The notes: generated by a model not told the origin, from the sequence alone. Positions 1 through 41,457 are shown, numbered from the stretch's first letter. The stretch is DNA of 59,682 nt from a virus (IMGVR_UViG_3300043466_003081:1-59682); one strand, 5' to 3'. Numbers and translations are program-made.

Positions 1-528
1 TAGCTCTGCTACAGTCCAAATTGTGGAACCGTAGACCACAACATCATTCTGTTTCAGCTTATCCTTTTCAACAGTAGCATGACGAGGATTACCTGTTCCA
101 GCCAACGGTACAAGTTTAACAGTATAAGGTTTCACTTCCTCAAGAGCATCTTTCTTAAATGCCTTGATAGCGTTGTTAGCGTCACCGCGAATCTCAAGTA
201 CTAGCTCACCAGCAGTATTGGTACCGATGTGGATACCATACACTTCTTCACCGATAACTTTGAATAGCTTAGACATGGTTTTCTTTTCCTCTTTTGTGTT
301 GCCGATTACTGTGTAGTTGCTTAGGGTATAGTTATCACCATCATACAAGGTACAATCGTTTAAACCTTTAGTATTGTAGTCTTGACCTTCCCAACGTTCT
401 AAGGGACGGCAACTTGCTGTGTCTGCTCTGTCATTTCTAAGATGAATCTTGTAGACTTCAAGAGGCACCTTGTTACGTCGATGCTTTAGAACATCACCTT
501 CTTTTAGATACTTTAGTACTACTGCCAT
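1..528 (-). CDS. hypothetical protein, truncated at window edge; possible internal in-frame start at 276
   Basis: Translated by hand (not in ORF track): open from ATG 528 (MAVVLKYLKEG...) to the window start. An internal GAGG-N11-ATG gives MSKLFKVIGEEV... Confidence 0.6.
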   Translation of the reverse strand, partial: MAVVLKYLKEGDVLKHRRNKVPLEVYKIHLRNDRADTASCRPLERWEGQDYNTKGLNDCTLYDGDNYTLSNYTVIGNTKEEKKTMSKLFKVIGEEVYGIHIGTNTAGELVLEIRGDANNAIKAFKKDALEEVKPYTVKLVPLAGTGNPRHATVEKDKLKQNDVVVYGSTIWTVAEL

Positions 529-680
529 TTTACCCCCAAGGTGTCTTTCCCAAATACAACGTAAAAGGGATTAGTGATTGCTGATGGAGCCTCTGAATAG
601 CTCATGTGTTCATGATGGTCCCAGTCGTCTTCGTTCCAAGCCTTGTGCTCCTTTATCAGGTTAAACTCTGCTTTACTCAT
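519..680 (-). CDS. hypothetical protein
   Basis: ORF 519..746 in track; the ATG at 680 overlaps the end of the upstream hydrolase gene and is the likelier start. Confidence 0.45.
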   Translation of the reverse strand: MSKAEFNLIKEHKAWNEDDWDHHEHMSYSEAPSAITNPFYVVFGKDTLGVKWQ

Positions 681-1029
681 AGAACGTATGTTCGCCATAG
701 CGTCCGATCCTTTTTCTGGTTTTAAAGAAACCTTTACGAGGTCCACTGTGAAAGAACAAAGCGTTTGTACCGGGTAACTCTGTGTAACCCCAGTACACTT
801 CTCCTGCCATAGTCACTGAGTCTAAGAAGACAGCTTCAGTAATAGGCAGGTCTTTGTTAGACCAAGAGAACTGTTTAGGCTGGTAGACTACCTCACAAAT
901 AGTTGCTGGGAAGTCTTCGTGTTTAACTCTGTTCATGATAACCTCAGCTACAAGTAACTGAGCATCAATAGTTTCTGAACGAGCTTCGTGGTAGAGAGCT
1001 AGGGCTAAGCATAAGATACTTTCTAGCAT
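673..1029 (-). CDS. SleB-like cell wall hydrolase (Hydrolase_2 family)
   Basis: CLALALYHEARSE...VAEVIMNRV...FPATICEVVYQPKQFSW...ALFFH...IGRYGEHTFY signature; strong GGAGG RBS. Confidence 0.88.
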   Translation of the reverse strand: MLESILCLALALYHEARSETIDAQLLVAEVIMNRVKHEDFPATICEVVYQPKQFSWSNKDLPITEAVFLDSVTMAGEVYWGYTELPGTNALFFHSGPRKGFFKTRKRIGRYGEHTFYE

Positions 1030-1043
1030 GCTACCTCCTTTGT

Positions 1044-1244
1044 TTAGAAAGGAATCAGTAGAGACTCCACGTATTGCATGTGATTTTCACTCATCTCTGC
1101 TAGGTCTTCATCAGTTATCTCTTTCCAAGTTGAGTTGTCTAAGGAACGCTCGATGTATCTCCAGTCTCGACATCGATAGTACCAAACTGTTCCGTCGAAC
1201 TCTGTGTAAGAGTTCAAAGGATCTATGCGGCAGTCATCGCACAT
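1044..1244 (-). CDS. hypothetical protein
   Basis: 66-aa ORF in the minus-strand gene run. Confidence 0.5.
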   Translation of the reverse strand: MCDDCRIDPLNSYTEFDGTVWYYRCRDWRYIERSLDNSTWKEITDEDLAEMSENHMQYVESLLIPF

Positions 1245-7168: not shown

Positions 7169-7193
7169 AGGAGCCTCCATCGTTTGGGGTTGA

Positions 7194-9100: not shown

Positions 9101-10666
9101 ATGACCCAGATACCAACTCTTACTTCTAAGTCTAGTGTTGGCACTCCAACTTACGAATATGAATCTATGGTTCGTATCTGGAAACGTTGCCGCGCTATTC
9201 TAAACGGAGAGCTTTATGCTAAAGAGCATGACCGTTATCTCGATCAAGTAAACTATACTAACTTATTAGTACCTTTTAGCCCTCGTATGTCAGCAGAACA
9301 GTATCGCTGGTACGTAGCTGAAGCAGAACTACCTGGGTTAACCTCTCAGTATGCAAAGATTCTCACAGGTGGTTTGCTACGTAAACCCCCAGAAATGACA
9401 CTACCTGAAACAGTACCCGAAGAAGCTCTTAACTGGCTACGTAATCGCTTTACTGAGGACGGTCGTCCAATGGTTGCTTTCCTTGATGCAGCTATTTGGG
9501 AGGAACTTTCAACTAGCCGCGGTTGGGTTTCTGTAGACTTTCCTATGGTCCCTAACTATACCGATCTAGACCCTGAACAAAAACAAATGATTGCTCCTTA
9601 TCCAGTACTTTGGAGAGCAGAAGATGTTATTAACTGGCAAACTGGTATTGACAAAGTTACAGGTCGTCCAACTCTTACTCGTATTGTATTCCGCTACATT
9701 GGTAGAACTTATAGAGACTCTGAGTGGCATCCTAACCTTGACATCGTTGCTGCAGACCACTATCTTGATGAGGCAGGTGTCTACAGGGTACAGTACTACA
9801 AAAAAGAGGGTGAAGCAACAGTAGACCTGATTAACGGTGATCTAAAGATGACTCAGCTCTTTGGTACTGAATTGTTCTCGAATGATCACTGGATCGCAGA
9901 TGGCGAGCCTCTAACTCCTATGATGTGGGGCGAGCCTATGAAACAGCTTCCTATCTTCCCATTGAATGGTGAAGTTACTCTTGAAGCTCCTATGCTGACT
10001 CCTCTTATTGACAAAGAAATTGCGCTCTACAATAAAGTCTCTCGTCGCAACCATTTGATGTACGGTGCTTCTACTTTTACTCCTGTTGTTTTCTCTGACA
10101 TGAGTAATGAAGATTTTGCTAGCGTAGTTAATGCTGGTTTAGGCTCTTGGATTAAGCTAGGATCTAATGACAAAATTGATGCTTTCCGTACTCCAACAGA
10201 TGCTTTAGCAGACATGGAAAAGGCTATTGAAGCTTCTCTTTCTGAAATGGCTCGCATGGGTGTTCGTATCCTTGCGCCTGAAGGCGATCAGTCTGGTATT
10301 GCGCTAGAAATCCGTAACTCAAGCCTAACAGCACAGCTAGGTCTACTTAATAATAAGCTATCTGCTACTATGGGTGAAGTTATCAAGCTAATGCTTCGTT
10401 GGCGTTATGGTAAAGATCTTGATGTAGAAGAGCTAGAATTCAAACTATCAGCAGACTTTAACCCAACACCTCTTGGTTCTGAATGGACTCGTCTAGTAAC
10501 TGAATGGTATCAGAATCGTTTGATTCCTCGTTCTGTATGGCTTTCTGTAGCTAAACAACATGATATTATTCCTAATGACTATGATGATGTAGCAGGTATG
10601 GAAGAAATCGGTCAAGATCCACTAATTCAAGACAACTCTGGCATAGACATAGAGGATAGTGTATAA
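9101..10666 (+). CDS. portal protein (DUF4055-like)
   Basis: 521 aa; position in the head module; GLLRKPP, YPVLWRAEDVINW and PMLTPLIDKEIALY segments resemble DUF4055 portals. Confidence 0.8.
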   Translation: MTQIPTLTSKSSVGTPTYEYESMVRIWKRCRAILNGELYAKEHDRYLDQVNYTNLLVPFSPRMSAEQYRWYVAEAELPGLTSQYAKILTGGLLRKPPEMTLPETVPEEALNWLRNRFTEDGRPMVAFLDAAIWEELSTSRGWVSVDFPMVPNYTDLDPEQKQMIAPYPVLWRAEDVINWQTGIDKVTGRPTLTRIVFRYIGRTYRDSEWHPNLDIVAADHYLDEAGVYRVQYYKKEGEATVDLINGDLKMTQLFGTELFSNDHWIADGEPLTPMMWGEPMKQLPIFPLNGEVTLEAPMLTPLIDKEIALYNKVSRRNHLMYGASTFTPVVFSDMSNEDFASVVNAGLGSWIKLGSNDKIDAFRTPTDALADMEKAIEASLSEMARMGVRILAPEGDQSGIALEIRNSSLTAQLGLLNNKLSATMGEVIKLMLRWRYGKDLDVEELEFKLSADFNPTPLGSEWTRLVTEWYQNRLIPRSVWLSVAKQHDIIPNDYDDVAGMEEIGQDPLIQDNSGIDIEDSV

Positions 10667-11006: not shown

Positions 11007-11070
11007 CTCTCCTCAATGAAGGATCTTAACAACACAACCCAGCTGAGGCTCGGTTAGAGGAGACACACAC

Positions 11071-11508: not shown

Positions 11509-11509
11509 A

Positions 11510-11992: not shown

Positions 11993-13086
11993 TGGCAACT
12001 AAAATTCTTCTTAAAAAATCTAGTACAGCAGGTGCTGTGCCGCTAACAACCGATCTCGAAATTGGTGAAGTAGCATTAAACCTTGCTGATCGTAAACTTT
12101 ATTCTAAAAATAATTCTAACACTGTAATTCCTATTGGCTCTGCGTATGTTGGCACTACTGCTCCTACTGCTCCTGCTGAAGGCGATCTTTGGTACGATTC
12201 TACTAACGATCTTCTAAAAGCGTATAATGGTACTGCTTGGGCAGCTGCAGGTTACACTTCTCTAACTCAATTTGGTGTTAACGCTAGTGCTGCAGAGTTA
12301 AATATCCTTGATGGAGCTACACTAACTACTACTGAGCTAAACTATGTTGATGGTGTTACCTCTGCTATTCAAACTCAGTTAGATGGCAAATCTTCCACTT
12401 CGCATAACCATACTATTGACTCACTTTCTAACGTAGTTGTCACTTCTAACTCTGATAACGAAGTACTAGCTTGGGATTCAGCTACTTCTAAGTGGATTAA
12501 CCAAACAGCAGCAGAAGCTGGTCTCGCTACTGCAGCTCACAACCACACTTTAGATTCTCTTTCTAACGTTACGATCACATCAAATGCTAGCGGTGAAATC
12601 TTAAAGTGGAATGGCACTGCTTGGATCAACAATACTCTTGCAGAAGCAGGTATTCAACCAGCTGGTTCTTACCTAACTGCCGAAGCAGATACTCTTGCTA
12701 CTGTAACAGGTCGTGGTGCAACTACTGCAACTGCTGTCTCAGTTACTAACGCTACAGCTTCATCTAACACTACTACAGGTGCATTGATCGTAACTGGTGG
12801 TGTTGGTGTTGGTGGTAACCTCAACGTTGGTGGCAACACTACTATCACAGGTAACTTAACTGTTAGCGGCACTACTACTACTGTCAACTCAAACACTGTT
12901 AACATTGGCGACAACATTATTGTTCTCAACTCTGATGAAACAGGGGCTGCTAGCCAAAATGCTGGTTTTGAAGTAGAGCGTGGTACTGATGCTAACGTAC
13001 AGTTTATCTGGAACGAAGGTAACGACGCTTGGGACATGGGCGATTGGCCATTACAAAACGTAAAGCTTGACGGCGGTTCTTACTAA
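11992..13086 (+). CDS. fibre protein (short)
   Basis: Mtd_N-like start (VPLTTDLEIGEVALN), SA.ELNILDG, HNHT.DSLSNV repeats, TGALIVTGGVGVGGNLNVGG fibre motifs. Confidence 0.75.
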   Translation: MATKILLKKSSTAGAVPLTTDLEIGEVALNLADRKLYSKNNSNTVIPIGSAYVGTTAPTAPAEGDLWYDSTNDLLKAYNGTAWAAAGYTSLTQFGVNASAAELNILDGATLTTTELNYVDGVTSAIQTQLDGKSSTSHNHTIDSLSNVVVTSNSDNEVLAWDSATSKWINQTAAEAGLATAAHNHTLDSLSNVTITSNASGEILKWNGTAWINNTLAEAGIQPAGSYLTAEADTLATVTGRGATTATAVSVTNATASSNTTTGALIVTGGVGVGGNLNVGGNTTITGNLTVSGTTTTVNSNTVNIGDNIIVLNSDETGAASQNAGFEVERGTDANVQFIWNEGNDAWDMGDWPLQNVKLDGGSY

Positions 13087-13108
13087 GACATAGAAAGGTC
13101 TCATCTAT

Positions 13109-16100
13109 ATGGCGACTAAAATTATTCACAAGAAGTCTAGTGTTGCTGAAAAAGTTCCACTAACGACTGATCTTGAAATCGGCGAGCTTGCTATCAACCT
13201 TGTCGATAAAAAACTTTTCTCAAAAGATGGCAACGGTAACATCATCGAGTTCGGCTCTGTAGAAGTACAGCAGCTAACTGTTTACAATGGTACTGGTGCT
13301 ACTATTCCTAAAGGCTCTGCTGTTTATATCAATGGAGCACAAGGACAAAGACCTAGTATTGCTTTAGCTAGTAACGCTAGTGAAGCTACTTCTAGCAAGA
13401 CTATTGGTTTCGTAAATGCAGACATTCTCAATGGAGCTGAAGGTGTAGTAACTACAGAAGGTTTAGTTTACAACTTAAATACGGCGGCTTTTACAGAAGG
13501 TGGAGCTATTTATCTGGGTGCTACAGCAGGTTCTATTACTCAGACTAAGCCTGTTGCTCCTGCCCACTTAGTTTCTCTTGGTTGGGTAGTCAAAGCTCAC
13601 GCTAGCTCAGGCCGTATTCTTGCTCATGTACAGAATGGCTTTGAGTTAAATGAGCTACATGACGTTCTTATTACTAGCCCTGCTAACACACAAGTACTAG
13701 CCTACGAGACCTCCACAGGTCTTTGGAAAAACTCTAATTTAGACTGGGCTAACGTACAGAACAAACCTGACCCTGTCATTACTCTTGCAGGTGACTTGTC
13801 AGGTAGTGTTACTCTTACAGACCTTGCTTCAGGCACTCTAACAGCTACTATTGCAGCGAACTCTGTTGCTCTTGGTACAGACACTACAGGCAACTACGTG
13901 GCTACTGTTGCAGCAGGTACTTCAGGTGCACAAACAAGCTCTAGTGGTTTAACTATCTCTGCAACAGCAGGAGAAGGTACAGCTGCAACTATTGCTCATG
14001 CCGATACTTCTACAGCAGCTAATTTAACTGCTAGTGGTAGAACTTATGTAACAGGTTTGACTTTTGACACCTATGGTCATGTTACTGCTTATACAACTGG
14101 AGCAGAAACTGTAACTGATACTAATACAACAAGTTTACCTATTGAAAACTCAGCAGGTACAGTACAATTTACTGCAACAGATACAACAGGGCTACAATTT
14201 GTAGGTTCTGGGGCTACTACTGTAGCTTTTGATGCAGCTAACTCAAGAGTGACTATTTCAAGCACAGACACAAACTCAGGTGGTACAGTAACTTCAGTTA
14301 GTGGAACTGCTCCTATTGTTAGCTCTGGTGGCACTACACCAGCTATTTCAATCACTGCAGCTACAACTTCAGCTGCTGGGTCAATGAGTGCCGCTGATAA
14401 GACTAAACTCGACGGTATTGCAACTAGCGCTAACAACTACTCTTTACCAGCAGCTACCTCAACTGCTCTTGGTGGTATTGAACTATTCAGTGATACTGCA
14501 CAAACCGTAGCAGCTAATACAGTTTCAACTACAGCTGGCAGAACTTATGGTTTGCAAGCTAACGGTTCTGGTCAAGGAGTAGTTAACGTTCCTTGGACTG
14601 ATACGAATACTACAAGCTTACCTATTAAGAACTCAGCGGGTGTTACTCAGATAACTGTAACTGATACTACTGGTTTACAATTTGTTGGTTCAGGAACTAC
14701 AAATGTTGCTTTTGATTCTCCAAATTCAAGAGTTACTATTTCTAGTACAGATTACACTTTACCTGCAGCATCTTCCACTACGAGAGGTGGTGTTGAGCTA
14801 TTTAGTGATACAATACAAACTACAGCAGCTAATGCTACCTCTCAAACAGCTAGTAGAACTTATGGTGTTCAAGTTAACTCTGACGCTCAATTAGTAGTCA
14901 ACGTTCCTTGGACTGATACAACCTCGACTTATACACTCCCAGCCGCTACATCAACTGCTCTTGGTGGTATTGAGCTAGCTTCAGATACTGTTCAAACTGT
15001 TGCTGCAGAAGCAGTTTCAGCTACTGCTTCAAGAACTTATGGTGTTCAAGTTAACTCTGCAGGTCAAGCTGTTGTTAACGTTCCTTGGGTAGATACAAAC
15101 TCTGGGGGAAATGCTCTTACTAGCAATACTTTAGCTCAGTTTGCAGCAACAACTTCTGCTCAACTTGCAGGCGTTATCTCAGATGAAACTGGATCGGGAG
15201 CTCTTGTATTTGGCACATCGCCTTCATTTACTACAGGTATTAACGCCGCTAGCGCCACAATGTCGTTGTTTGATACCACGGCAACAACTGTGCATGCTTT
15301 TGGTGCAGCTACTACAGGTAATCTTGGTTATGACGGTACTGCAGCTAGTACCACTAATATTTCAATTGGTGCTAATACTTCTGGTGTAGTTAAAGCAGTT
15401 AATATTGGAACCGGAGGCGTTTCTGGTTCTACCACTAATATTACTTTAGGCTCTACAACAGCAGGTGCACTCGGAAATACTACTGTAAGATCATCTTCTC
15501 TTATCGTACCAAACCGTTTAGCAGTGGGTGCTGATATGGCCGCCAATACTGGCCCCATTTTAACTCTTGGTACAATTACTAATAATGGCAGCGGCCTTAT
15601 GAATGGCACTCATACAAACCAAGCATTTGTTGGTGGCTCCGGGTCTGGTATGCTTGGTACGGTCACTGTTGCGCTTGGTGTTGTAACTGGGATTACTCTT
15701 ACTTGGGGAGGTCATAAATATTTAGTTGGCGATGTCCTTACTATGACGTCGTTATCTACAGCTTTAGCTACAACTGCAATTAGCGGAAACGGCACTACTG
15801 TAACTATTACGTTTGCAACTCAAGCTGCCGCTCCATTTGAAGTTGGTTCACAAATTTTTGTTTCAGGTGTTACACCTACTGGCTATAACGGCACTTTTAC
15901 TGTTACTGCTTGTACGACTACTTCAGTTTCTTATGCAAATGCTACAACGGGCGCGCAAACTGTGGCTGGCACGGTTAAGATGGGCTCAGCTCTTACTTCT
16001 TCAACCATTCCAGTGGCTACTATCCAAGGTGCGAATATTTATGTTAACTCGTATACTTCTGATTCAATTGGCGCAAGAATTCGTCTAGAATCAAACGATA

Positions 16101-17455
16101 CATCAATTGCTGCTGGTCAAGAGTATGGCGCAATTACCTTTAGTGGTCGTGATGCTAGCATAAACGGCTCTGGTGATTTAGCTTTAATTCGTGGTGTTGG
16201 TGTTGGAACCTCTGGAGGTAGCGATCTTCAATTTTGGACGGCTGCTAACGGTGCCGCTCCTACTCCTTCTGCTGTGATTACCTCAGGTGGAGACTTTAGA
16301 CTTTATAATGCGGCTGGTACGTTCTACTCAGAACTTTCAAATAACCCAACTGCAAACAGAACAGTTACAATTCCAGACGGTACTGGTACTCTAGTATTTG
16401 ATACTTCGCCTTCATTTACGACAGGTATTAACGCTGCTAGCACAACAATGGCGTTATTCGATACAACAGCTACAACTGTAAACGCTTTTGGTGCAACAAC
16501 AACTCTTAACTTAGGTTATGATGGAACAGCCCAAAGTACCACCAACATTTCTACAGGGGTGGTAGCATCTGGTGTACCCAAAACTGTCAACATTGGTACT
16601 GGTGGATCTGGAGCATCTACTACTAACATCAATATTGGTGCTAATGATAACGGCGGGCTTACTATCAACTCATCTGCAGTAAACGCACCAAATGCAAATT
16701 TAACGGCTTATACTCTAGCTGCTGATTACATCGACGCCAATGCTGGTGTTATGCAAATTCATGCACCCGCTGGTTTTGGCGCGCAACTGAATTTTTATCC
16801 AGACGCTTCTACCTATGGCTGGAGTATTAATGCAGAAACAGATAATACAATTTCGTTCTATTCCCAAACTCCGAATGAGGCTGTATTTAGGGTTGGTGCT
16901 GCTGGGCAAATCGGCGTTGGTGTAGTTACTGACTACGGTACCGCTGGGCAAGTATTAACTTCTGGCGGAACTGCTGGTGAAGCTAGCTGGACTACTTTAC
17001 CAACTGCAACATCAACTGTTAAGGGTGTTGTTGAGCTGTTTAGCGATACAGTGCAAACCGTAGCAGCTAATGCTGTAACTGCGACTGCAAGTAGAACCTA
17101 CGGTATTCAACTAAATGCCGCAAATCAAATGGTAGTAAACGTCCCTTGGACAAGTGGAGCCCCAACAACTGCTGAGGTAGGTACAGCCACGGCTGGCTTA
17201 GCGGTCGGCGATGTTGGTTCTTATGCGCTCCTTTGGCATAATACTACTGCCGCAGAAACTCCAGGTACTACTGCTGCAGGCTCAACTTTGCGTTATGCTA
17301 ATACAACGACAGATGCGACAAACCCACTCGTTGGATATGGCGCAACAGCTCCCGCTGGCACTTGGAGAATCATGGGTCATACCGCGGTGCAAGGTGGAGG
17401 CACTGCTTTTGCATTTTCCCTGGCAAACGTATCAGTCTGGTTAAGGATATCTTAA
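13109..17455 (+). CDS. long fibre / receptor-binding protein
   Basis: 1448 aa, Thr/Ala/Gly rich, several internal repeats, same N-terminus as the upstream fibre, C-terminal GTWRIMG...VWLRIS. Confidence 0.8.
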   Translation: MATKIIHKKSSVAEKVPLTTDLEIGELAINLVDKKLFSKDGNGNIIEFGSVEVQQLTVYNGTGATIPKGSAVYINGAQGQRPSIALASNASEATSSKTIGFVNADILNGAEGVVTTEGLVYNLNTAAFTEGGAIYLGATAGSITQTKPVAPAHLVSLGWVVKAHASSGRILAHVQNGFELNELHDVLITSPANTQVLAYETSTGLWKNSNLDWANVQNKPDPVITLAGDLSGSVTLTDLASGTLTATIAANSVALGTDTTGNYVATVAAGTSGAQTSSSGLTISATAGEGTAATIAHADTSTAANLTASGRTYVTGLTFDTYGHVTAYTTGAETVTDTNTTSLPIENSAGTVQFTATDTTGLQFVGSGATTVAFDAANSRVTISSTDTNSGGTVTSVSGTAPIVSSGGTTPAISITAATTSAAGSMSAADKTKLDGIATSANNYSLPAATSTALGGIELFSDTAQTVAANTVSTTAGRTYGLQANGSGQGVVNVPWTDTNTTSLPIKNSAGVTQITVTDTTGLQFVGSGTTNVAFDSPNSRVTISSTDYTLPAASSTTRGGVELFSDTIQTTAANATSQTASRTYGVQVNSDAQLVVNVPWTDTTSTYTLPAATSTALGGIELASDTVQTVAAEAVSATASRTYGVQVNSAGQAVVNVPWVDTNSGGNALTSNTLAQFAATTSAQLAGVISDETGSGALVFGTSPSFTTGINAASATMSLFDTTATTVHAFGAATTGNLGYDGTAASTTNISIGANTSGVVKAVNIGTGGVSGSTTNITLGSTTAGALGNTTVRSSSLIVPNRLAVGADMAANTGPILTLGTITNNGSGLMNGTHTNQAFVGGSGSGMLGTVTVALGVVTGITLTWGGHKYLVGDVLTMTSLSTALATTAISGNGTTVTITFATQAAAPFEVGSQIFVSGVTPTGYNGTFTVTACTTTSVSYANATTGAQTVAGTVKMGSALTSSTIPVATIQGANIYVNSYTSDSIGARIRLESNDTSIAAGQEYGAITFSGRDASINGSGDLALIRGVGVGTSGGSDLQFWTAANGAAPTPSAVITSGGDFRLYNAAGTFYSELSNNPTANRTVTIPDGTGTLVFDTSPSFTTGINAASTTMALFDTTATTVNAFGATTTLNLGYDGTAQSTTNISTGVVASGVPKTVNIGTGGSGASTTNINIGANDNGGLTINSSAVNAPNANLTAYTLAADYIDANAGVMQIHAPAGFGAQLNFYPDASTYGWSINAETDNTISFYSQTPNEAVFRVGAAGQIGVGVVTDYGTAGQVLTSGGTAGEASWTTLPTATSTVKGVVELFSDTVQTVAANAVTATASRTYGIQLNAANQMVVNVPWTSGAPTTAEVGTATAGLAVGDVGSYALLWHNTTAAETPGTTAAGSTLRYANTTTDATNPLVGYGATAPAGTWRIMGHTAVQGGGTAFAFSLANVSVWLRIS

Positions 17456-17456
17456 T

Positions 17457-17855
17457 ATGAATTATAGAAACGCAAAAAAATTAGCAAATAACCGCATAGA
17501 CTGCGAAATTGAGCATGAAACTTTAGGTTGGATACCGTTCACCTGTGATCCAAACGACACTGGGGCGTTGTTTGATGTAGCGGAACTCTATTCTACAATG
17601 GATGCAGATCCAAATACTGCAGAGTACATTCCTCCTACTCAAGCAGAGCTAGATGCTGTTGCAACAGAAAACGTACGAAATCAACGAAACTATCTACTGA
17701 CAACAGAAGTAGATCCAATAGTTAGTAATCCGCTACGTTGGGCAGACTTGTCCACTGAGCAGCAACAAGCTTGGGCAACATATCGTCGTGATCTTCTCGA
17801 TATTCCTAACCAGTCTGGTTTTCCATATAGTATTGTTTGGCCAGAAAAACCATAA
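17457..17855 (+). CDS. tail-fibre assembly chaperone
   Basis: IDCEIEHETLGWIPFT and VRNQRN.LL...WATYRRDLLDIPNQSGFPYSIVWPEKP signature. Confidence 0.85.
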   Translation: MNYRNAKKLANNRIDCEIEHETLGWIPFTCDPNDTGALFDVAELYSTMDADPNTAEYIPPTQAELDAVATENVRNQRNYLLTTEVDPIVSNPLRWADLSTEQQQAWATYRRDLLDIPNQSGFPYSIVWPEKP

Positions 17856-17867: not shown

Positions 17868-20800
17868 ATGAGTCTAACCCAAGAATTATTTGACAGACAA
17901 ATTGAGCACTTGCTCACAATTAGACGTTATCAAGATGCTGCAAACTTACTTATTGATAAAGCTTCAAACCGTCACCGTGGTTTTTTAAAGAAAATTCTTG
18001 GAAAAGACTTAAAAGATAAACTAGCACTAGAGCGTGAGGTTACAAGGCATGTCCAAGAGCTTCACGCACTAGGAGCTAATGCTGTTTCTGACTTCATCGG
18101 AGCAGAGTTAGACTTCCAAACTAACAATCTTAGACGTTCTGTTGGTGACTTTTACAGTGTTAACTCTGTTAACCGCGGACAACTTGCTAGAGAAATCACT
18201 AGCCAGCCTCTCAAGCTCTTTAACGAGACCAAGTCTCATCCCACTATGGTAAAGAGTTTTGAGAACGTAGGCGGTGCAGAACTAACACGAATCAATCTTA
18301 CAATTCGTAGGGGCATTGCTGCAGGCGAAGTCGAAGACGACATCATCAAGAAAGTACTACAGACTACAAAGTTAACTGACAACCAAGCCAAGACTCTTGT
18401 TACTACTCACATGACTCAAGCAGACAACATCGTCAAGCAAAAAGTACTTGAAGCAAATAAAGAAGTTTACTCTGGTTATGTCTTTACAGCTATTCTTGAC
18501 TCCCGTACTAGTGAAATCTGTTCTCGTTATGACAACTTGTTCCAGTCAGCAGACAACGTAAAAGTTCGTCCTCCATTACATTGGCGTTGCCGTTCTGTTC
18601 TTGTTCCTGTTCTAAAGTCTAAGAAAGAAATCGCTCGTTCTACAAGTGACAGGCTAAACAAAGAACGGCTAGCTGCTGTAGCTGACAACAATTTGTCAGG
18701 TGCATTACCTATTAAAGAGACTTTTAGCGAGTGGTTGATCCGTCAACCTATGGCAACAAAAGTAGACAAGTTAGGTTCAGAGGAACGAGTAGCTCTCTTT
18801 GAAAGAGGCGCTCTTGGTTTAACAGACTTCTTTAGCAATTTAGGTCGTCCTCTTGATATTAGTGCTGTAAGAATTAAAGATAATCTTCTTACTTTCTTTA
18901 GCCCTGTTTCTCTTCGTGACAAAGATCCCCAAGCTGCTTTTCTTGATGTTGCTAGACCTTTTCAAGTAGTTCGTTCAGCACAAATACAAAAGGATCTTGC
19001 CGACCTCATTGTTGCAGATACTATGAATGGTAACTCAGCGATTAGTTTAACAGACTTCCGCGGTACTAGTTTAGGCGGTAAACGTGGTGTTAGACAAGCA
19101 GCTAACAACGAGTTTGATCCTCGCAATCAAACTTTTGATCCTTTTACAGGAGAAGTACGTTCTACTCTTTACTATGATCCAGACTTCACACTTCTTCGTG
19201 AACGTATTGACTACATGAAAGAGTCTAAGTTACTCGATCGTAATCAGAAACAGTTTATCGAAGACTTTACTAACAGCTTAGAAGATCGAGTGTCTGTAAA
19301 TCAGCAAACAGTAGTAGTAGAAAACCTTCGTGTTCTATTTGAACGCTATCAAAAGAACCCAGAACCTTGGGAAAATTTTGTAGCTACCGTTCGAGCAGAA
19401 ATGAATTTCTCTACAATAAACGTTTCAAGGTTACTTGATCGTCGTTCAAGAGCACGTTCAGAATTGTTCCTTGGTTTTAAGGGAGATCCTAACGAACCTG
19501 CAGTAATGATTCAAGGTCAAACACTAGCTATTTCAAAACTACATGCTGAAAAGTTAGAATATGAACGCTATGTGAAAGACTGGGCTTCAACTGAGGGTAT
19601 CAAGCTAGCTCGCAGTGTTTACTACCGTGGTAAAGCACCTTGGACTTCTTATTTCTTTGGGCCTAATGAGAAACCAGAAGGTTTGTTTGAAACACTAAAA
19701 GACAGTTTTATTAAACGTTCTATTCGTGCTACTTTTTACAAAGACGATCCTATTGGTTTTTATACTCGTTTCGGTAAAACTCCAGACAAATTCTCTAAAA
19801 TTGTTAAAAAGTACTTGAAAAAGAAAGTTACTCCTGATTGGTTAACTATGTTTCTTGAGATCAAGGAAGAAGGCTTTGCCGACTTCATTACAAGAACTAT
19901 TCGTGAAGAATATCGTTCTATTGTAGACCTGGAATTCTTTTATAAACTAAGGCGTTCTTTAACGCTAGAGCGTTTGTTTGTTCAAAAGTTAGCTGAGCCT
20001 ATCGAAGGTGAAGTTACTCGTTCTATGTCAAGGCTGATGGCAGTAGTTGCTGAAGGCACTACAACAGACTATGACTCACTAGCTATTAGCCTAGGTAAGG
20101 AGTTAAAGTCTACTTGGAATCCTATTTACCCTATCTTTGGTTCTTCTCTTGAAGACTACCATGAGCAAGGGTCTAAGATTCTAGAACTAATGCGTCAACA
20201 AGGGCTTATCAGAGTAAACTCTCGTGGTGTTACTCGCAGAGCTACTACAGACTTAGACACAGGTCGTGCTTCAGGAAACTGGAAAGATACTGTTTCAAGA
20301 GAAGTTCAAGTTATTGATCCAGTAATGCTTAAACTACAAGACTATAATCGTCGTATTGAACTGTCTAATCGCCTAGGTGTAGATCGTCCTGAAAACAAGT
20401 ATTTTGTCGTTCCCGGTAAAAAGACTTATGTAGATGCTCGTGGGCGTGATACTGGTGTTCCTGTTGTAACTCGTTCAGCTTTTTCTAAGTTCGATGAAAA
20501 ACAAATTGATGGCGATTTCGCCGATATGTTAAACCACACAATGTCTTTCCGTTATGAAGTAGACGACGAGTTTACTAGCTTTATGGATGACTTAGTTAGA
20601 TTTAAAGACCAGAGAGGTAAAGCGGCTTACTATGACTCAATTAACGGCTTTCGTGAAGAAATTATCAGGCGAGGAGACCAAGGCTATGGTCTTATGGAAA
20701 CTATCAGGTACTATCGGGCCAATGGAAAGACTTTCACCGTACATGCCCGTATTGACGGTCGTGGCCGCGTATATTACAACGGGTATTTAACACCTACTGG

Positions 20801-22391
20801 TGGTGAAGTAGTTCGTCCTTTCTTAAACACAGCTCATGCTGTTTCAATGACTCCTCAAGGTTTAAACCAGCTACGGATTCAAATGGCAGCTGTTATAGGT
20901 CCAGGTACTGAAGCACTTACTGATGCTGGCAGACTAGCTATCTTCAAGCGTAATGAAAAGTTTATTCTTGAGGTAGGGCAGTTACTTAGCGCAAAAACTC
21001 AAAGAGAACGTCGTATTAGAGAGTTTCTTGAACATCCTTTAATTCAGTCTACAGATGCTGCTGAAGTAGCTAAGATTGCTCGCTTTAGTCTTGAGTACTA
21101 TCGTATTCATAAGCATACAGGTGGTGATTTTACTCCTGCAAAGCTAAAAACTTATAAGTCTAAACTACTTGGTGAAGCTGACGCTTCTGCTTCAGGCTTA
21201 CAAATGATTGCTCTTGCTACAGGTGATCGTGGTGCTGCTATTACCTCTAATGTATTGCAGTCTATTAAGAAAAACAGAATCTATGACCTTGTTGCTCAAG
21301 ATACTGTTAGTGATCCTCGTTTTCAAGATTTGATGCAAGAATTAAATCTTAACTTGACTTGGGAAGATATCAATAAAGCTGCAAAGTATCAGGTTATGAT
21401 CTCACTGTATGGTGCAGGTAAAGCAGGACAAGCAGCTCGAGTTGCTCTTGAGTTGTCAAAAGTACTTCGTAAGCAAGATGTGCTTGTTACTACCAGAGCA
21501 GAATATTTAGCTTTGACTAAACAAATTGACGTCAAAATTAAAGAAGCTAAGTCTTTAGGTGCAACAGACACTCAAGCTGACCTCTTAGCATTAAAGAAAG
21601 AAGTCCTTGAAATTGCTAACAATCCTGATAAAGCTGTTAGCGATGCGTTACTTGCTGAAGCAGCAGATTTTCACCCAGATCTTTCTGACTTTATTTACAA
21701 GTACTCAAATAGGAGAGGTCCTCAAGTAGGTCCTGACCACTTCAAAAGAATTGCTGCTATTATGTCTGAAAAACTCTCAGAACGTGCACCTGTTACTGAT
21801 AACTACATTGACTTTTGGAAAAGAGTTGGCCAAGATTACGCACGATCAACTAAAAAGGTTCGTATTCCTTGGGTTACTTTTGATGGTAAACTACTATACC
21901 AAGACTATCGACCAAAGATCCAACAAGAAATTCGTTTCTACGATCCTCAATCTAAACGTTACATTCGCAACATTTATCAAATGAATGCTGAAGATGGTAA
22001 GCTATTAGGTAAAGGGCAAGTAGGCGATGTTCGACTGGGTCTAGGTGTTAACGGTACTCACGCAGACGATGCTAGTGTTGTTAGACAGCTACATCTTTGG
22101 GGTCGTCGTACTGGTATTCCAACTTCAACTATTCATGACGCTGCTGCTTTAAATATCAATGAAATCGATCCTCTCTTAGCAGAAGTTCGAGATATCTACA
22201 AGCGTTTTGCTCAATATCCAAAAGTTAAAAAGACTCTTGATGCTCTTCGTGAAGAAGGGTTACCTGACGAGTTGTATTTTAAATACTTAAAAGAAGCTGA
22301 AGACCTTGGCTACTTTGATCCTAAATTTAAACCAGAAGAAATTACAGCTCCTTTAAAAACCGGGTATGACTACTACGGTTGGGGGCCATAA
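17868..22391 (+). CDS. MuF/SPP1-gp7 head morphogenesis domain fused to a T7-like single-subunit DNA-directed RNA polymerase
   Basis: N-term: FTAILDSRTSEIC...RPPLHWRCRSVLVP (MuF). C-term: DGRGRVY, motif A DASASGLQ, motif B K.QVMISLYG, NGTHADDAS, motif C IHDA. Confidence 0.9.
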   Translation: MSLTQELFDRQIEHLLTIRRYQDAANLLIDKASNRHRGFLKKILGKDLKDKLALEREVTRHVQELHALGANAVSDFIGAELDFQTNNLRRSVGDFYSVNSVNRGQLAREITSQPLKLFNETKSHPTMVKSFENVGGAELTRINLTIRRGIAAGEVEDDIIKKVLQTTKLTDNQAKTLVTTHMTQADNIVKQKVLEANKEVYSGYVFTAILDSRTSEICSRYDNLFQSADNVKVRPPLHWRCRSVLVPVLKSKKEIARSTSDRLNKERLAAVADNNLSGALPIKETFSEWLIRQPMATKVDKLGSEERVALFERGALGLTDFFSNLGRPLDISAVRIKDNLLTFFSPVSLRDKDPQAAFLDVARPFQVVRSAQIQKDLADLIVADTMNGNSAISLTDFRGTSLGGKRGVRQAANNEFDPRNQTFDPFTGEVRSTLYYDPDFTLLRERIDYMKESKLLDRNQKQFIEDFTNSLEDRVSVNQQTVVVENLRVLFERYQKNPEPWENFVATVRAEMNFSTINVSRLLDRRSRARSELFLGFKGDPNEPAVMIQGQTLAISKLHAEKLEYERYVKDWASTEGIKLARSVYYRGKAPWTSYFFGPNEKPEGLFETLKDSFIKRSIRATFYKDDPIGFYTRFGKTPDKFSKIVKKYLKKKVTPDWLTMFLEIKEEGFADFITRTIREEYRSIVDLEFFYKLRRSLTLERLFVQKLAEPIEGEVTRSMSRLMAVVAEGTTTDYDSLAISLGKELKSTWNPIYPIFGSSLEDYHEQGSKILELMRQQGLIRVNSRGVTRRATTDLDTGRASGNWKDTVSREVQVIDPVMLKLQDYNRRIELSNRLGVDRPENKYFVVPGKKTYVDARGRDTGVPVVTRSAFSKFDEKQIDGDFADMLNHTMSFRYEVDDEFTSFMDDLVRFKDQRGKAAYYDSINGFREEIIRRGDQGYGLMETIRYYRANGKTFTVHARIDGRGRVYYNGYLTPTGGEVVRPFLNTAHAVSMTPQGLNQLRIQMAAVIGPGTEALTDAGRLAIFKRNEKFILEVGQLLSAKTQRERRIREFLEHPLIQSTDAAEVAKIARFSLEYYRIHKHTGGDFTPAKLKTYKSKLLGEADASASGLQMIALATGDRGAAITSNVLQSIKKNRIYDLVAQDTVSDPRFQDLMQELNLNLTWEDINKAAKYQVMISLYGAGKAGQAARVALELSKVLRKQDVLVTTRAEYLALTKQIDVKIKEAKSLGATDTQADLLALKKEVLEIANNPDKAVSDALLAEAADFHPDLSDFIYKYSNRRGPQVGPDHFKRIAAIMSEKLSERAPVTDNYIDFWKRVGQDYARSTKKVRIPWVTFDGKLLYQDYRPKIQQEIRFYDPQSKRYIRNIYQMNAEDGKLLGKGQVGDVRLGLGVNGTHADDASVVRQLHLWGRRTGIPTSTIHDAAALNINEIDPLLAEVRDIYKRFAQYPKVKKTLDALREEGLPDELYFKYLKEAEDLGYFDPKFKPEEITAPLKTGYDYYGWGP

Positions 22392-22638: not shown

Positions 22639-22660
22639 CACCTCTTAGCTATAAAGAAGA
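22639..22660 (+). promoter_or_regulatory. putative phage RNAP promoter, copy 2 (upstream of the scaffold/capsid operon)
   Basis: CACCTCTTAGCTATAAAGAAGA, intergenic, co-oriented with the capsid genes. Confidence 0.65.
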
Positions 22661-22730: not shown

Positions 22731-22895
22731 GAGGTGACTTATGACTCGTGATTACTCCTTGTACCCCGGTTGCCTTTGTCCTTTCTGTAAAGAAGGAAAG
22801 ATAAAAGAAGTAACTGTATGGAATCATCGAGAAGGCTTTTTTGTTTGTTCTTCTTGCGATTTTACATACCAGCCTCCTCAATATAGGTATAAAAA

Positions 22896-23069
22896 ATGAA
22901 AACAAAAGAATTTAAAGAGTGGTTTGCTGATTTTGCTGCTGGTGTCGCTATCGAAGGCCCCAACTCAGGTCAATGGCGTAAACTACAAACAATTGTCAAC
23001 TCTCTAGAAGTAGAAGCTCCTAAACCAGTGGTTGAAAAAGCTCCTGTTGAGAAAAAGATTAAAGAATAA
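22896..23069 (+). CDS. hypothetical protein, 57 aa
   Basis: Translated by hand: MKTKEFKEWFADFAAGVAIEGPNSGQWRKLQTIV...; AGGT RBS. Confidence 0.6.
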   Translation: MKTKEFKEWFADFAAGVAIEGPNSGQWRKLQTIVNSLEVEAPKPVVEKAPVEKKIKE

Positions 23070-23158: not shown

Positions 23159-23839
23159 ATGGCTGATCAAAACGACGATAATACTGTCAATGATAATGAA
23201 GACGATAATGACACCAATCAACAAGACCTTTCCCAACGGAAAGCCTCTCTTGCTGATGAGCATCAAGCTCTACTAAAACAATTGGTGGCTGACGAGCTTA
23301 AACAAATGAAGGGCAATGTTGACAAAGCCTACAAAAAAGCTGAAGAGCTAGCACGTGAAAATGCTCGTCTCAAAGCAGAAGCTCAAGATAAGCAACGTAA
23401 ACAACTCGAAGACGAAGGCAAGCATTATGAAGTTGCTAAACTCAAGCTTGCTGAACTAGAAGAAGAAAAGAAAATTCTGCAGGATAAACTTACTTCTGTT
23501 ACTCGAGATCGTGAGCTAGAGAAGCACTTAGGCTCTCTCGAGTTCCGTAACGACTTCGCACGTGAAACTGCTTTCAAAACTATTCTCCCTGAACTTGTCC
23601 AAGACGAGGACGGCTCATGGGTTCACAAGTCTGGCGCTAGTATTAATGACTATCTCAAGGCTTTTTCTAAAGATCCTAATAAGGATTTTCTCTTTAAACC
23701 TAAAGAAAACTCAGGTGCTGGCTCAAACTCGAACAAGAACTCTGCTTCAATGTCACGTCCAAAGACTCTCTCTGGCATGACTACTGAAGAGCTACTTGCT
23801 CTTGCTGAATCAGGTAAACTCGGAACAGTGACTTTCTAA
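23159..23839 (+). CDS. capsid scaffolding protein
   Basis: Acidic N-term, long coiled coil, FLFKP...SGAGS motif, directly upstream of the MCP. Confidence 0.8.
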   Translation: MADQNDDNTVNDNEDDNDTNQQDLSQRKASLADEHQALLKQLVADELKQMKGNVDKAYKKAEELARENARLKAEAQDKQRKQLEDEGKHYEVAKLKLAELEEEKKILQDKLTSVTRDRELEKHLGSLEFRNDFARETAFKTILPELVQDEDGSWVHKSGASINDYLKAFSKDPNKDFLFKPKENSGAGSNSNKNSASMSRPKTLSGMTTEELLALAESGKLGTVTF

Positions 23840-23870: not shown

Positions 23871-24962
23871 ATGGCTATTAATCATCTAAACTTTCAGAAC
23901 GTAGCAGTTGCTATCTCTGCTTATGCAGAAGAGCGCTGGACCGAAGAAAAGCGTATTAACTCAACTGGTATGGTTGCTGCTTCAACCGAGCTAGACCCAT
24001 CAGGCGAAGGCTTCGCTGGTCAGCTACGCTGGTACAAACCACTATCAGCTACCATCAACAACGCTTCACTAACCACTGCTACTGATGGTACTTATTCTTC
24101 AATCTCAACCGACATTGCTAACTATGTTAAGAATGCTCGCACCATCGGTGCTGAACAGGTTAACCTACAGCGCATTATCTCACAGCAGGACGGCCTAGCT
24201 TTCTTCGCTCGTAACTTTGCTCAGTCACGTGCTCAGGACGAGCATAACGCTGTTCTAAACATCATGAAGGGCGTTGCTGCTTCTGAAGTTGCTCTTGGTG
24301 CTGGTATTGTCGGCTTCGACACTGTTCCTTCAGGTTCAGTTGGTGCTTTCGTTGACGTTAACGCTGCTGGTGCTTTCGGTGCTGCTGCTACTGGTGCTGG
24401 CGATGCTCGCAAGCTAGTTGACTCTTCAGAAATCGGTGCTGCTCGTGGTGAGCGTCTATTCCGCGCTATGGGTATGTTCTACAAGGACTACGAACCAGAC
24501 TTCGTCTACATGGTAACTTCACCTGAAGTTCTTGCTGACCTTCGTGCAGCTAACCTAATCGACCAAGACCGTGTTCGTGACGGTAACCTAGACTTCCAAA
24601 CCATCTTTGGTGGTAAGTTCCGTCTAGTGCTAACTCGTGCTGCTCAGGGCAACCTTGCTGCCTCAGCTAACGTTAATGACCAGTCAACCAAGACAACCTT
24701 CCTTGTCAAGCCTGGCTCAGTTGCTTTCCGCGAAATCCCAATGCCAGTCGCTACCGAAGTTGATCGTAATCCTGCTAGCTATGCTGGTGGCGGTTCAACC
24801 AACATCTGGTATCGCTATGGCTTCGTTGCTCATCCTATGGGCTACGACTGGGTTGGCGCAACCAACAACTTCGCTACCAACTCAACCCTAGGGGCTGCTG
24901 CCTCATGGACCCGTACTATGGATCCACTAAACCTAGGTATTCTCCCCATCCTACACGCTTAA
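23871..24962 (+). CDS. major capsid protein
   Basis: 363 aa after the scaffold; strong codon bias; C-terminal EVDRNP...GGG...WYRYGFVAHPMGYDW typical of siphovirus coat proteins. Confidence 0.85.
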   Translation: MAINHLNFQNVAVAISAYAEERWTEEKRINSTGMVAASTELDPSGEGFAGQLRWYKPLSATINNASLTTATDGTYSSISTDIANYVKNARTIGAEQVNLQRIISQQDGLAFFARNFAQSRAQDEHNAVLNIMKGVAASEVALGAGIVGFDTVPSGSVGAFVDVNAAGAFGAAATGAGDARKLVDSSEIGAARGERLFRAMGMFYKDYEPDFVYMVTSPEVLADLRAANLIDQDRVRDGNLDFQTIFGGKFRLVLTRAAQGNLAASANVNDQSTKTTFLVKPGSVAFREIPMPVATEVDRNPASYAGGGSTNIWYRYGFVAHPMGYDWVGATNNFATNSTLGAAASWTRTMDPLNLGILPILHA

Positions 24963-27239: not shown

Positions 27240-27559
27240 AACATCTAGTCGGTAAAGCACAAAAAACAGTAAAAGTTAAATTTATGGATGGTGAAACTGT
27301 AGAAGTAAAAAAGCTTACTGTTTCTCAGGTAAAGGACTTTCAATCACAATTAGATGCTATTAAAGAAAAAGACTCTACCGATTCAGGCCTTCAAATCCAA
27401 CGTAGTGTAATTCGTATGGGTGTTGTAGGTGCGGAAGATCTTACAGATGAAGAACTAGATTCTTTCCCATTAGACGAAGTAGTAAATCTCGCTCAAAAAG
27501 TACTTGAGCTAGCAGGCGTGCGTTCGGCAGAGGGAAACGACTCAGTGAAGAAGAATTAA
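27236..27559 (+). CDS. tail assembly chaperone (gpG-like)
   Basis: Position between major tail and tape measure genes; slippery site near the 3' end. Confidence 0.8.
   Translation: MKHLVGKAQKTVKVKFMDGETVEVKKLTVSQVKDFQSQLDAIKEKDSTDSGLQIQRSVIRMGVVGAEDLTDEELDSFPLDEVVNLAQKVLELAGVRSAEGNDSVKKN
27532..27538 (+). other. -1 programmed ribosomal frameshift site G GGA AAC
   Basis: XXXYYYZ heptamer in the correct phase; the -1 frame is open into ORF 27613..27864. Confidence 0.8.
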
Positions 27560-27864
27560 ATTACTACGAGATAGCTTATAATTTAAAATTAACTTTACAA
27601 GAGCTTAATGAGTTGTCTTATGAAGAAATGCTAGGCTGGTCAGAATACTTTAGGAGAAGACCAGTTGGATGGCGAGAAGACAATAGAGCAGCAATTATTG
27701 CTATGTCTTTTGGCGGATCTAAACTAAAGCCAAGTGATTTATTTAGCTCTTTAAAAGTTATAGAAGATGAAAACAAAGCAGTAGACAACTCTACTACAGT
27801 TGGCCAAAAATTCTTCGAAAGATTTAAACATAAACTTACAGAGGAGATTCCTTTTAATGCTTAA
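27532..27864 (+). CDS. frameshift extension of the tail chaperone (gpT-like)
   Basis: -1 frame reads GKRLSEEELNYYEIAYNLKLTLQELNELSYEEMLGWSEYFRRRPVGWREDNRA... Confidence 0.75.
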   Translation, partial: GKRLSEEELNYYEIAYNLKLTLQELNELSYEEMLGWSEYFRRRPVGWREDNRAAIIAMSFGGSKLKPSDLFSSLKVIEDENKAVDNSTTVGQKFFERFKHKLTEEIPFNA

Positions 27865-28168
27865 TATTACTTTTAATAGGACTCTCCTTTCTAAAAAAAT
27901 AAAAGCTGAAGTAGAACAGCAGTTTAAACAACAAACTAAAAAATTATTAGAAGATTTAGAAGATGCTACACCTGTAGATACAGGCTTAGCTAGAAATAGC
28001 TGGTCTTTAGAGTTTAAAGATAGCACTACAGCTACTATTTCAAATTCTCAAGAATACATCGATATTCTTAACAAAGGCAGTTCAAAACAAGCTCCTCGTT
28101 ATTTCATAGAAAGAACTATGATGAATAATGGCTTCAAAGTCAAAGAGCTAATAACAACAAAAAAATAG
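27857..28168 (+). CDS. HK97 gp10-like neck/tail-completion protein
   Basis: TPVDTGLARNSW...YIDILNKGSSKQAPRYFIE motif; GAGGAG RBS. Confidence 0.8.
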   Translation: MLNITFNRTLLSKKIKAEVEQQFKQQTKKLLEDLEDATPVDTGLARNSWSLEFKDSTTATISNSQEYIDILNKGSSKQAPRYFIERTMMNNGFKVKELITTKK

Positions 28169-28177
28169 TCATAAAGT

Positions 28178-28213
28178 GCCTCATAGTATAAATACTGTGG
28201 GGCTATTTTATTT
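28178..28213 (+). terminator. candidate intrinsic terminator before the tape measure gene
   Basis: GCCTCATAGTAT-AA-ATACTGTGGGGC followed by TATTTTATTT. Confidence 0.55.
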
Positions 28214-28225
28214 AGGAGTTAAAAA

Positions 28226-38451: not shown

Positions 38452-38452
38452 T

Positions 38453-41442: not shown

Positions 41443-41457
41443 AAGAAGGAAAACAAA

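Follow-up and report, generated by a model that had tools for sequence, protein, structure and literature searches.

To our knowledge, RNA polymerases (RNAPs) that are packaged in the virion are known from only a few groups of phages, namely the N4-like, phiKZ/AR9-like and crAss-like phages and P23-45. Virion RNAPs are made late in infection, are packaged and transcribe the early genes of the next infection, often activating a second phage RNAP (PMC5312081). The MuF-type head protein gp7 of phage SPP1 binds the portal and enters the capsid in few copies (PMC6316719), and in gp7-like proteins the C-terminus bears cargo for which delivery at infection has been proposed (PMC6316719; PMC5512222). 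In passages of Iyer et al. 2017 (PMC5512222) on these two kinds of proteins, N4-type virion RNAPs are confined to N4-like phages, and the listed MuF fusions are to RNase, 2H, RelA/SpoT and others, with RNAP not among them. Here we describe a gene in which MuF and an RNAP are joined. It lies in IMGVR_UViG_3300043466_003081, a linear IMG/VR virus record of 59,682 bp that is 86% complete by CheckV (hereafter the window, i.e., the whole stretch of DNA that was analyzed). The gene (17868..22391, + strand) encodes a protein of 1507 amino acids (aa) with three parts: a MuF domain (residues 1-345), a MuF-associated domain (residues ~360-535) and a complete T7-type RNAP (residues ~552-1507), which may act as a virion RNAP.

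The fusion gene is one unbroken open reading frame (ORF) with an ATG start. Both of its Pfam matches are above the gathering score: Phage_Mu_F (PF04233) on residues 142-245 (E 1.4e-10, 42.3 bits vs. a cut-off of 29.6) and RNA_pol (PF00940) on residues 1092-1455 (E 8.1e-11, 41.8 bits vs. a cut-off of 22). In PHROGs, residues 64-329 match phrog_241 (head morphogenesis) at E 8e-47, and residues 957-1196 match positions 385-607 of the 816 in phrog_414 (RNA polymerase) at E 3.4e-20. Together with the structural match described below, these results fully support the architecture proposed in a previous sequence-only reading of the window, i.e., an N-terminal MuF domain followed by a C-terminal T7-like single-subunit RNAP, and all of the motifs quoted in that reading were found in the translation, correctly placed.

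The fusion is not a product of misassembly, because the same architecture recurs in two cultured phages, in at least 170 protein clusters and in at least 567 IMG/VR stretches (from 599 candidates). Among 50,697 GenBank phage records, the only full-length relatives are those of DSS3_VP1 and DSS3_PM1 (43% identity), which are annotated as 'head morphogenesis' or 'minor head protein-like protein', and EBPR siphovirus 1 carries a split form of the fusion. The clusters, which come from a metagenome protein collection and were formed at 90% identity, nearly all have both Pfam domains precomputed and are named 'SPP1 gp7 family putative phage head morphogenesis protein'; at 50% identity, 125 representatives were found at E<=0.001 out of 1.84 billion. 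The gene and its precomputed Pfam domains are already public, but they are labelled only as a head protein.

The polymerase module was modelled with AlphaFold2 as part of residues 330-1507 (38-row alignment; mean predicted local distance difference test score (pLDDT) 77.3; predicted template-modelling score 0.68), with low pLDDT in the stretch of residues ~590-714. The model aligns with the whole of T7 RNAP (VIA-align: Z 30.1, root-mean-square deviation 3.5 A over 525 residues), its positions 229..1176 (of 1178) corresponding to residues 34..882 (of 883) of the T7 enzyme, at a sequence identity of ~17% in the structural alignment. The yeast and human mitochondrial RNAPs come next in VIA-align, with Z of about 26-27, and the N4 mini-vRNAP reaches a Z of only 16.8. 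T7 RNAP was also found by Foldseek (E 1.5e-19). At the sequence level, a family profile was required, as a single-sequence search of PDB sequences with the fusion returned chance-level matches only. The profile, built from an alignment of 29 full-length homologues that are 41-88% identical to the query, finds chains of T7 RNAP among the PDB sequences (E 1.1e-5), the match consisting of three collinear segments (T7 residues 412-469, 527-579 and 722-841). The sequence-only reading had placed the RNAP in the C-terminal ~600 aa. Its motifs are in place, but the module is ~955 aa (residues ~552-1507), because the structural alignment spans T7 residues 34-882; as modelled, it is an entire T7-type enzyme that includes an equivalent of the N-terminal domain.

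Within this module (all features on the + strand), the T7-RNAP-like N-terminal domain and thumb equivalent cover residues ~552-954 (19521..20729), as delimited by the VIA alignment and by a hidden Markov model (HMM) alignment in which T7 residue 412 corresponds approximately to residue 955. The palm/fingers polymerase domain, identified by Pfam RNA_pol, the family profile, Foldseek and VIA-align, covers residues ~955-1507 (20730..22388). Its first motif, D963-G-R965-G-R967 (20754..20768; DGRGRVY being residues 963-969), is HMM-aligned to DWRGR of T7 (residues 421-425), and in motif A (DASASGLQ, residues 1105-1112, 21180..21203) D1105 is HMM-aligned to T7 D537. Motif B, K1173-x7-Y1181-G1182 (21384..21413), has the same spacing as K631/Y639 in T7. 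A beta-hairpin at residues ~1347-1380 (21906..22007), HMM-aligned to T7 residues ~739-770, is formed by two long strands (residues 1021-1030 and 1035-1044 of the AlphaFold2 model) and is specificity-loop-like, occupying the place of that loop in T7 RNAP. H1398 and D1401 (T7 H784/D787 by HMM alignment) lie within NGTHADDAS (residues 1395-1403), and motif C, IHD (residues 1422-1424, from nt 22131), contains H1423-D1424 (T7 H811-D812); the two together span nucleotides (nt) 22059..22139. The protein ends with YGWGP (22374..22388); across the 29 sequences, Y1503 and G1506 do not vary, and the conservation of P1507 is at least 90%. This end coincides with that of T7 RNAP, so the catalytically important C-terminus stays free in the fusion.

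Invariant positions in the 29-sequence alignment are D963, R965, G966, R967, D1105, K1173, Y1181, G1182, H1398, D1401, H1423, D1424, Y1503 and G1506. In a deeper alignment of 19 sequences, reaching 20% identity, the invariant polymerase residues are R967, D1105, K1170, K1173, Y1181, G1182, D1401 and D1424, so that motif B is invariant in both alignments, and the invariant MuF residues are L210, D211, T214, C218, P235, P236, H238, C241, R242 and S243. Purifying selection acts on both modules. The MuF domain is N-terminal in all seven distant homologues tested (7/7), and the family ranges from 24 to 42 bits on Pfam RNA_pol. Judging from these residues, from the conserved C-terminus that coincides with that of T7 and from the group I intron/HNH elements that home into motif B in relatives (see below), the polymerase is likely active.

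The MuF/SPP1-gp7-like head-morphogenesis domain (17868..18902, +), supported by Pfam and PHROGs, has its Pfam core at nt 18291-18602 and carries the signature FTAILDSRTSEIC...RPPLHWRCRSVLVP at residues 205-247 of the translation (nt 18480-18608). An AlphaFold2 model of residues 1-600 (pLDDT 84.8) matches 112 predicted viral minor-capsid/head-morphogenesis structures (E<=1e-3, BFVD), one of which is a MuF-ADP-ribosyltransferase of 1192 aa from Xanthomonas phage Xp12. The same model retrieved nothing from the PDB at E<=0.001 with Foldseek, and against solved structures VIA wide returned only generic helical bundles (Z<=10.2). In each of three records searched with PF04233 (the window, its close relative G001 and DSS3_VP1; 3/3), the fusion is the only match. 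A complex prediction for the portal protein (521 aa) with MuF residues 1-345 scored 0.00 and was used neither for nor against docking.

The MuF-associated helical domain (residues ~360-535; 18945..19472, +) is confidently folded in both AlphaFold2 models and is also present in the RNAP-less MuF proteins P0167, P0191, P0195 and P0209. It has no informative match in the PDB, Pfam or the Protein Atlas (Atlas query residues 355-545). The portion of the protein that is neither RNAP nor MuF core is thus only about residues 346-545. A middle region of ~550 aa had been regarded as unexplained, with a role in promoter recognition as one suggestion. Most of that region turns out to be the T7-like N-terminal domain, and residues ~346-545 do fall outside both the RNAP and the MuF core. 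The suggestion itself holds in part, since residues ~552-954 correspond to the N-terminal (promoter-binding) domain and thumb of T7 RNAP, while residues ~360-535 go with MuF.

In many relatives, ORFs end at residues ~1173-1183 and separate ORFs begin at 1177 or 1183. At locus L042 (3453-4310), the break falls between residues 1177 and 1178, inside motif B, and is caused by an 836-nt insert. This insert matches the group I intron model RF00028 over the full model length (E 5.4e-6) at 31.6 bits, which is below the gathering score of 50, and it also holds a 209-aa ORF that is HNH-like by eye and has no match in Pfam. At the gathering threshold, Rfam gave no match in the window or the EBPR siphovirus 1 locus, and a tRNA scan gave none either. 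The gene is also interrupted or variant in EBPR siphovirus 1 (L116, 8934-9854) and in proteins P0010, P0017, P0019-P0021, P0142 and P0155, and other relatives have insertions of ~110-130 aa after residue ~1089 and after residue ~260.

The fusion gene holds the portal-MuF-capsid slot within the late structural operon. In a synteny sample of 80 related loci, with counts taken over loci that have enough flanking DNA, the portal gene directly precedes the fusion gene, on the same strand, in 42 of the 47 loci testable upstream, mostly at a distance of 29-520 nt, and the capsid gene follows in all 49 loci testable downstream. The head module of the window starts with PhoH (8014) and includes the gene for the portal (9101..10666, +; phrog_145, E 7e-46), the presumed docking partner of MuF, as well as the genes for the scaffold (23159..23839, +; phrog_206) and the major capsid protein (23871..24962, +; phrog_247). 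These are followed by an adaptor, a 3206-aa tape measure and J-like tail genes, so the tail module is of the siphovirus type. The fusion gene begins 12 nt past the preceding structural gene, and three small ORFs, for which no family match was found, separate it from the scaffold gene. The order portal, fusion, scaffold agrees with the sequence-only reading, but the portal gene is not adjacent in the window, where about 7.2 kb of fibre-like genes (10667-17855) intervene, and neither, given the three ORFs, is the scaffold gene. We detected no prohead protease in this module.

A PF00940 search of 10 records (the window, G001-G007, DSS3_VP1 and EBPR siphovirus 1) identified a canonical RNAP in addition to the fusion in six of them (DSS3_VP1, G001, G004, G005, G006 and G007). 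The canonical RNAPs are open frames of 722-766 aa that score 244-272 bits. All records that are complete, or complete to at least 88%, are among these six, G004 and G005 having terminal repeats and being rated 100% complete. The other four, in which only the fusion was identified, are fragments: the window (86%), G002 (62%), G003 (42%) and EBPR siphovirus 1 (partial). Across most of its length, G001 shares 87-98% identity with the window; its contig end cuts the polymerase end of the fusion, with the MuF part present. The window is without the G001 stretch 31,684-51,436 (~19.7 kb), which encodes the canonical RNAP (726 aa; phrog_414, E 1.2e-132), a DNA polymerase, an exonuclease, the large terminase and a second HNH gene, and the right end of the window cuts a primase/helicase gene, a function that the relatives encode as well. 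The fused and canonical RNAPs are not recent duplicates, because they are only ~20% identical; a recent duplication of the genome's own RNAP was also rejected when tblastn with the polymerase part missed the canonical RNAP of DSS3_VP1 (E<=1e-3). An hhalign comparison of the family with the G001 canonical RNAP gave a probability of 4% (E 0.011) and an alignment that is collinear at most motifs but wrong at motif B; it shows divergence only.

We propose, with a probability of roughly 60%, that the fusion is a capsid-packaged and co-ejected early RNAP, in which an N4-like logic would be combined with a T7-like enzyme and a MuF tag. This proposal is favoured because the gene is part of the late head operon, the phage has no other MuF protein, the catalytic site is conserved and a canonical RNAP is encoded elsewhere; the two-polymerase logic in particular follows from the second, canonical RNAP of the relatives. 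MuF as a delivery tag was the central idea of the sequence-only reading. The architecture behind it stands, and delivery gains substantial circumstantial support from the sole MuF, the slot, the second RNAP, the purifying selection on both modules and the free C-terminus, whereas packaging and ejection are steps that we infer. In the proposed mechanism, the fusion gene would be expressed late, together with the head genes, and, as the procapsid assembles, MuF would dock on the portal in the way that SPP1 gp7 docks on gp6, so that a few copies of the ~170-kDa fusion would end up inside the capsid. Docking on the portal might also hold the polymerase off the DNA within the cell that produces the virions. 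When the next cell is infected, the fusion would exit via the tail with the DNA and then refold, and the refolded enzyme would transcribe the early genes from phage-specific promoters without the host RNAP. These early genes would include that of the canonical ~730-aa RNAP in the replication module of the relatives, which would afterwards handle middle and late transcription. In the Naomviridae and their relatives, whose DNA contains deoxyuridine or is non-canonical in another way, the first minutes of infection would then be independent of how well the host RNAP reads a modified template.

Several points weigh against this proposal. For no member of the family did we find a virion proteome, a transcript map or an activity assay, and the main text of the DSS3_VP1 paper (PMC8323127) is without virion proteomics. 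That MuF cargo enters the host is, in the account given in PMC6316719, no more than a proposal, even for model systems. A folded ~110-kDa polymerase must unfold to traverse a siphovirus tail and must then refold. Since the fused polymerase scores 41.8 bits, compared to ~250 for a canonical RNAP, it is very divergent and its role could have changed; H1398 and H1423 vary in the 19-sequence alignment. There is no second RNAP in the window itself, its presence being deduced from the relatives. Finally, no promoter class could be assigned to the fused enzyme; the one recurrent T7-like motif (ACCTCTTAGCTATAAAG-type) could not be attributed to either RNAP.

The polymerase might instead act without delivery, as a late-gene RNAP in the producing cell, where it would be translationally coupled to the head genes, tethered to the procapsid or cleaved free, with MuF serving only in head assembly. 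The position of the gene within the late operon suits such a role, as does the T7-like promoter-like motif at 22639-22660, which lies just past the gene and before the scaffold and capsid genes. However, every near-complete relative already has a canonical RNAP that could transcribe its middle and late genes, and there is no obvious release mechanism because no prohead protease turned up in the head module. The covalent fusion is, moreover, kept down to 20% identity; since it is conserved and MuF is always N-terminal (7/7 distant homologues), it can be argued that the polymerase must travel with MuF, and known MuF fusions are cargo carriers. We therefore regard an enzyme confined to the producing cell as unlikely.

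A packaged and ejected enzyme could also have a main job other than early transcription, either a mechanical one, pulling the genome in by transcribing it while the MuF part tethers the polymerase near the DNA end, or the priming of replication. Entry of T7 DNA involves pulling by RNAPs. The architecture and synteny that argue for a packaged early RNAP apply equally here, and an active polymerase suits either function. SPP1 gp7 aids the start of infection, with infectivity at about 25% without it (PMC6316719). Against priming, the relatives encode a primase/helicase, and a primer-making RNAP is thus not needed; pulling is compatible with early transcription rather than exclusive of it. Such a role as the main one seems a slim prospect. 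The polymerase could, lastly, be an inactive remnant whose fold now serves in an internal capsid protein or an ejection protein, as the weak Pfam score, the single-sequence PDB search with only chance-level matches and the low hhalign probability vs. the canonical RNAP might suggest. We consider this highly improbable given the invariance of the catalytic Asp, Lys, Tyr, RGR motif and C-terminus across the family, the match to the whole enzyme structure including the N-terminal domain and specificity-loop hairpin, and the insertion of homing introns at motif B.

The promoter-like motif mentioned above is a 22-nt sequence, CACCTCTTAGCTATAAAGAAGA, that occurs three times in the window, at 2603-2624 (+), 22639-22660 (+) and 57142-57163 (-), with two exact copies and one with 2 mismatches (0 expected by chance). 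Copies lie 33 nt before the start of the ribonucleotide reductase small-subunit gene and just past the fusion gene, with the scaffold and capsid genes following; the copy at 2603 is oriented against its flanking ORFs. G001 has orthologous copies as well as intergenic variants with 1-3 mismatches, one of them 13 nt before a ribosome-binding site. In its CTATA core the motif is similar to promoters of the T7 group, and it is probably a phage RNAP promoter. A 38-nt repeat with the palindrome GACCTGCTCAGGTC (7183-7220 and 7602-7639) lies between small genes of the minus strand; it is absent from G001 at up to 6 mismatches and could be a regulatory hairpin. Exact 9-mer enumeration of the intergenic DNA yielded nothing further, and sigma-70-like sites were not enriched in the early region of G001 (12 found vs. 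12.5 expected).

The family includes the roseophages DSS3_VP1 and DSS3_PM1 (Naomviridae), and the window shares about 23 genes with DSS3_VP1, including those for a dCMP deaminase and a phosphoesterase. Both gene types were linked by Rihtman et al. (PMC8323127) to the replacement of deoxythymidine by deoxyuridine (dU), and the DSS3 phages have dU genomes according to the same source (PMC8323127). In the window, two dCMP-deaminase-like genes (1400-1840 and 3700-4083) and the phosphoesterase gene (57416-57952) are orthologous to DSS3_VP1 genes, and the segment 47755-52507 (-) holds genes for an ATP-grasp-like protein (RimK-type), an amidoligase, a COOH-NH2 ligase and two glutamine amidotransferases. 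Such sets of ligase and amidotransferase genes are tied to hypermodification of DNA bases or to peptide tagging. The ligase cluster, together with the dCMP-deaminase-like and phosphoesterase genes, suggests that the phage of the window too has non-canonical DNA.

With regard to the neighbourhood of the fusion gene, the insert that separates it from the portal gene contains a tail-fibre-like gene (11992), a fibre-assembly-like gene (17457) and a gene for a repeat-rich protein of 1448 aa (13109-17455), which has a head-fibre Pfam match and internal repeats of 161 nt and 255 nt. Just past the fusion gene and the promoter-like motif, a 52-aa ORF (22741-22896, +) shows a CxxC...CxxC zinc-ribbon pattern, with weak Zn-ribbon Pfam matches under the cut-off (E 0.001-0.004). 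In the region of the tape measure gene (28226-37846), positions 27247-37332 (about 10.1 kb) of the window have no counterpart at the nucleotide level in G001, whose matches to either side lie only about 5.4 kb from each other, and internal repeats of 95-170 nt are found at 34712-37583. Because the region is unmatched and shorter in G001, near relatives appear to differ greatly in tail length. A free-standing HNH gene (ORF 53968-54456, -) lies beside the gene for the ribonucleotide reductase large subunit; the segment 53947-54443 is an insertion relative to G001, in which its flanks are 37 nt apart.

We found no description of a MuF-RNAP fusion in the full-text literature, a search that had supplements and subscription journals outside its scope, and the main texts of two papers on Naomviridae (PMC8323127, PMC12669031) never mention RNA polymerase. 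Neither virion RNAPs nor MuF cargo are new as such, and P23-45 already offers an example of an RNAP fused to an ejected virion protein. Each of the known virion RNAPs has altered the understanding of phage early transcription and host takeover. The chances are about even that a large, ecologically abundant lineage of aquatic siphoviruses, comprising Naomviridae and their relatives, some with dU-DNA, is transcriptionally autonomous from the first second, with MuF as a general delivery tag carrying a T7-type RNAP of ~110 kDa through the tail and the enzyme reading promoters in non-canonical DNA and turning on the canonical RNAP. If so, the fusion would be the third virion RNAP design to have evolved independently, the others being those of N4 and of the two-barrel enzymes, and a compact natural 'self-delivering' T7-like polymerase; the MuF tag would be able to deliver a large working enzyme, not toxins alone, and the beginning of transcription in dU-genome phages could be explained. 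The fusion is not rare, being widespread and present in an abundant marine lineage with non-canonical DNA: a 2025 single-particle study describes Naomviridae as abundant in seawater and under-sampled owing to their non-canonical DNA (PMC12669031). The hypothesis is directly testable, because the cultured phages DSS3_VP1 and DSS3_PM1 infect Ruegeria pomeroyi DSS-3.

Among known systems, gp50 of N4 (Schitoviridae) resembles the fusion in being a single-subunit RNAP of the T7 superfamily encoded among late/structural genes, and in both cases the genome follows a two-RNAP logic. N4 gp50 is packaged, is ejected with the DNA and transcribes the early genes, after which a second phage RNAP follows (PMC4496689, PMC13434306). 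It differs in its size of ~3500 aa, its central polymerase flanked by injection and encapsidation regions of its own and, in the description given in PMC5512222, its lack of MuF, whereas the fusion has 1507 aa with MuF at the N-terminus and the polymerase at the C-terminus and belongs to a virus with a siphovirus-type rather than a podovirus tail module; packaging, which is established for N4 gp50, is proposed for the fusion. Membership in the N4 vRNAP family was rejected, as phrog_2166 matched only at E 0.0011 over residues 886-974 and the Z was 16.8 compared to 30.1 for T7 RNAP. The closer fold to T7 RNAP also bears out the suggestion in the sequence-only reading of a route distinct from N4, for which P23-45 is already a siphovirus precedent with a fused RNAP.

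The MuF cargo fusions, i.e., MuF polymorphic toxins and the MuF fusions to ADP-ribosyltransferase, RNase and RelA/SpoT, likewise have an N-terminal MuF domain, a C-terminal enzyme and a gene beside the portal gene. Their cargo is proposed to enter the capsid via the interaction with the portal and to be delivered at infection (PMC6316719; PMC5512222). In contrast to a toxin or a host-modifying enzyme, the cargo here is a polymerase of ~955 aa for the phage's own DNA, and the immunity gene that accompanies MuF toxins is not expected for the fusion. An identity as a MuF polymorphic toxin was rejected, given that the C-terminal module is an RNAP and the small ORFs downstream have no family match. 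With T7 RNAP (gene 1), the fusion shares the whole-enzyme fold, the catalytic motifs in the same order, the specificity-loop-like hairpin and the coincident C-terminus. T7 RNAP, however, is synthesized early in the infected cell and does not enter the virion.

Thermus phage P23-45 is also a siphovirus in which an RNAP is joined to a virion protein released from the particle upon infection. Its virion RNAP transcribes pre-early genes, including that of another RNAP (bioRxiv 10.1101/2022.12.01.518664). In P23-45 a two-barrel RNAP is carried on the tape measure protein, whereas in the fusion a T7-type right-hand enzyme is joined to a MuF domain expected inside the capsid. Phages phiKZ and AR9 (PBS2-type) are similar in their independence of the host RNAP, which is achieved by a virion and a non-virion RNAP (PMC5312081). 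They differ in that their enzymes are multisubunit two-barrel RNAPs, that they are jumbo myoviruses and that their RNAPs are not linked to MuF. The DNA of AR9/PBS2 contains uracil, as does that of the Naomviridae relatives of the window.

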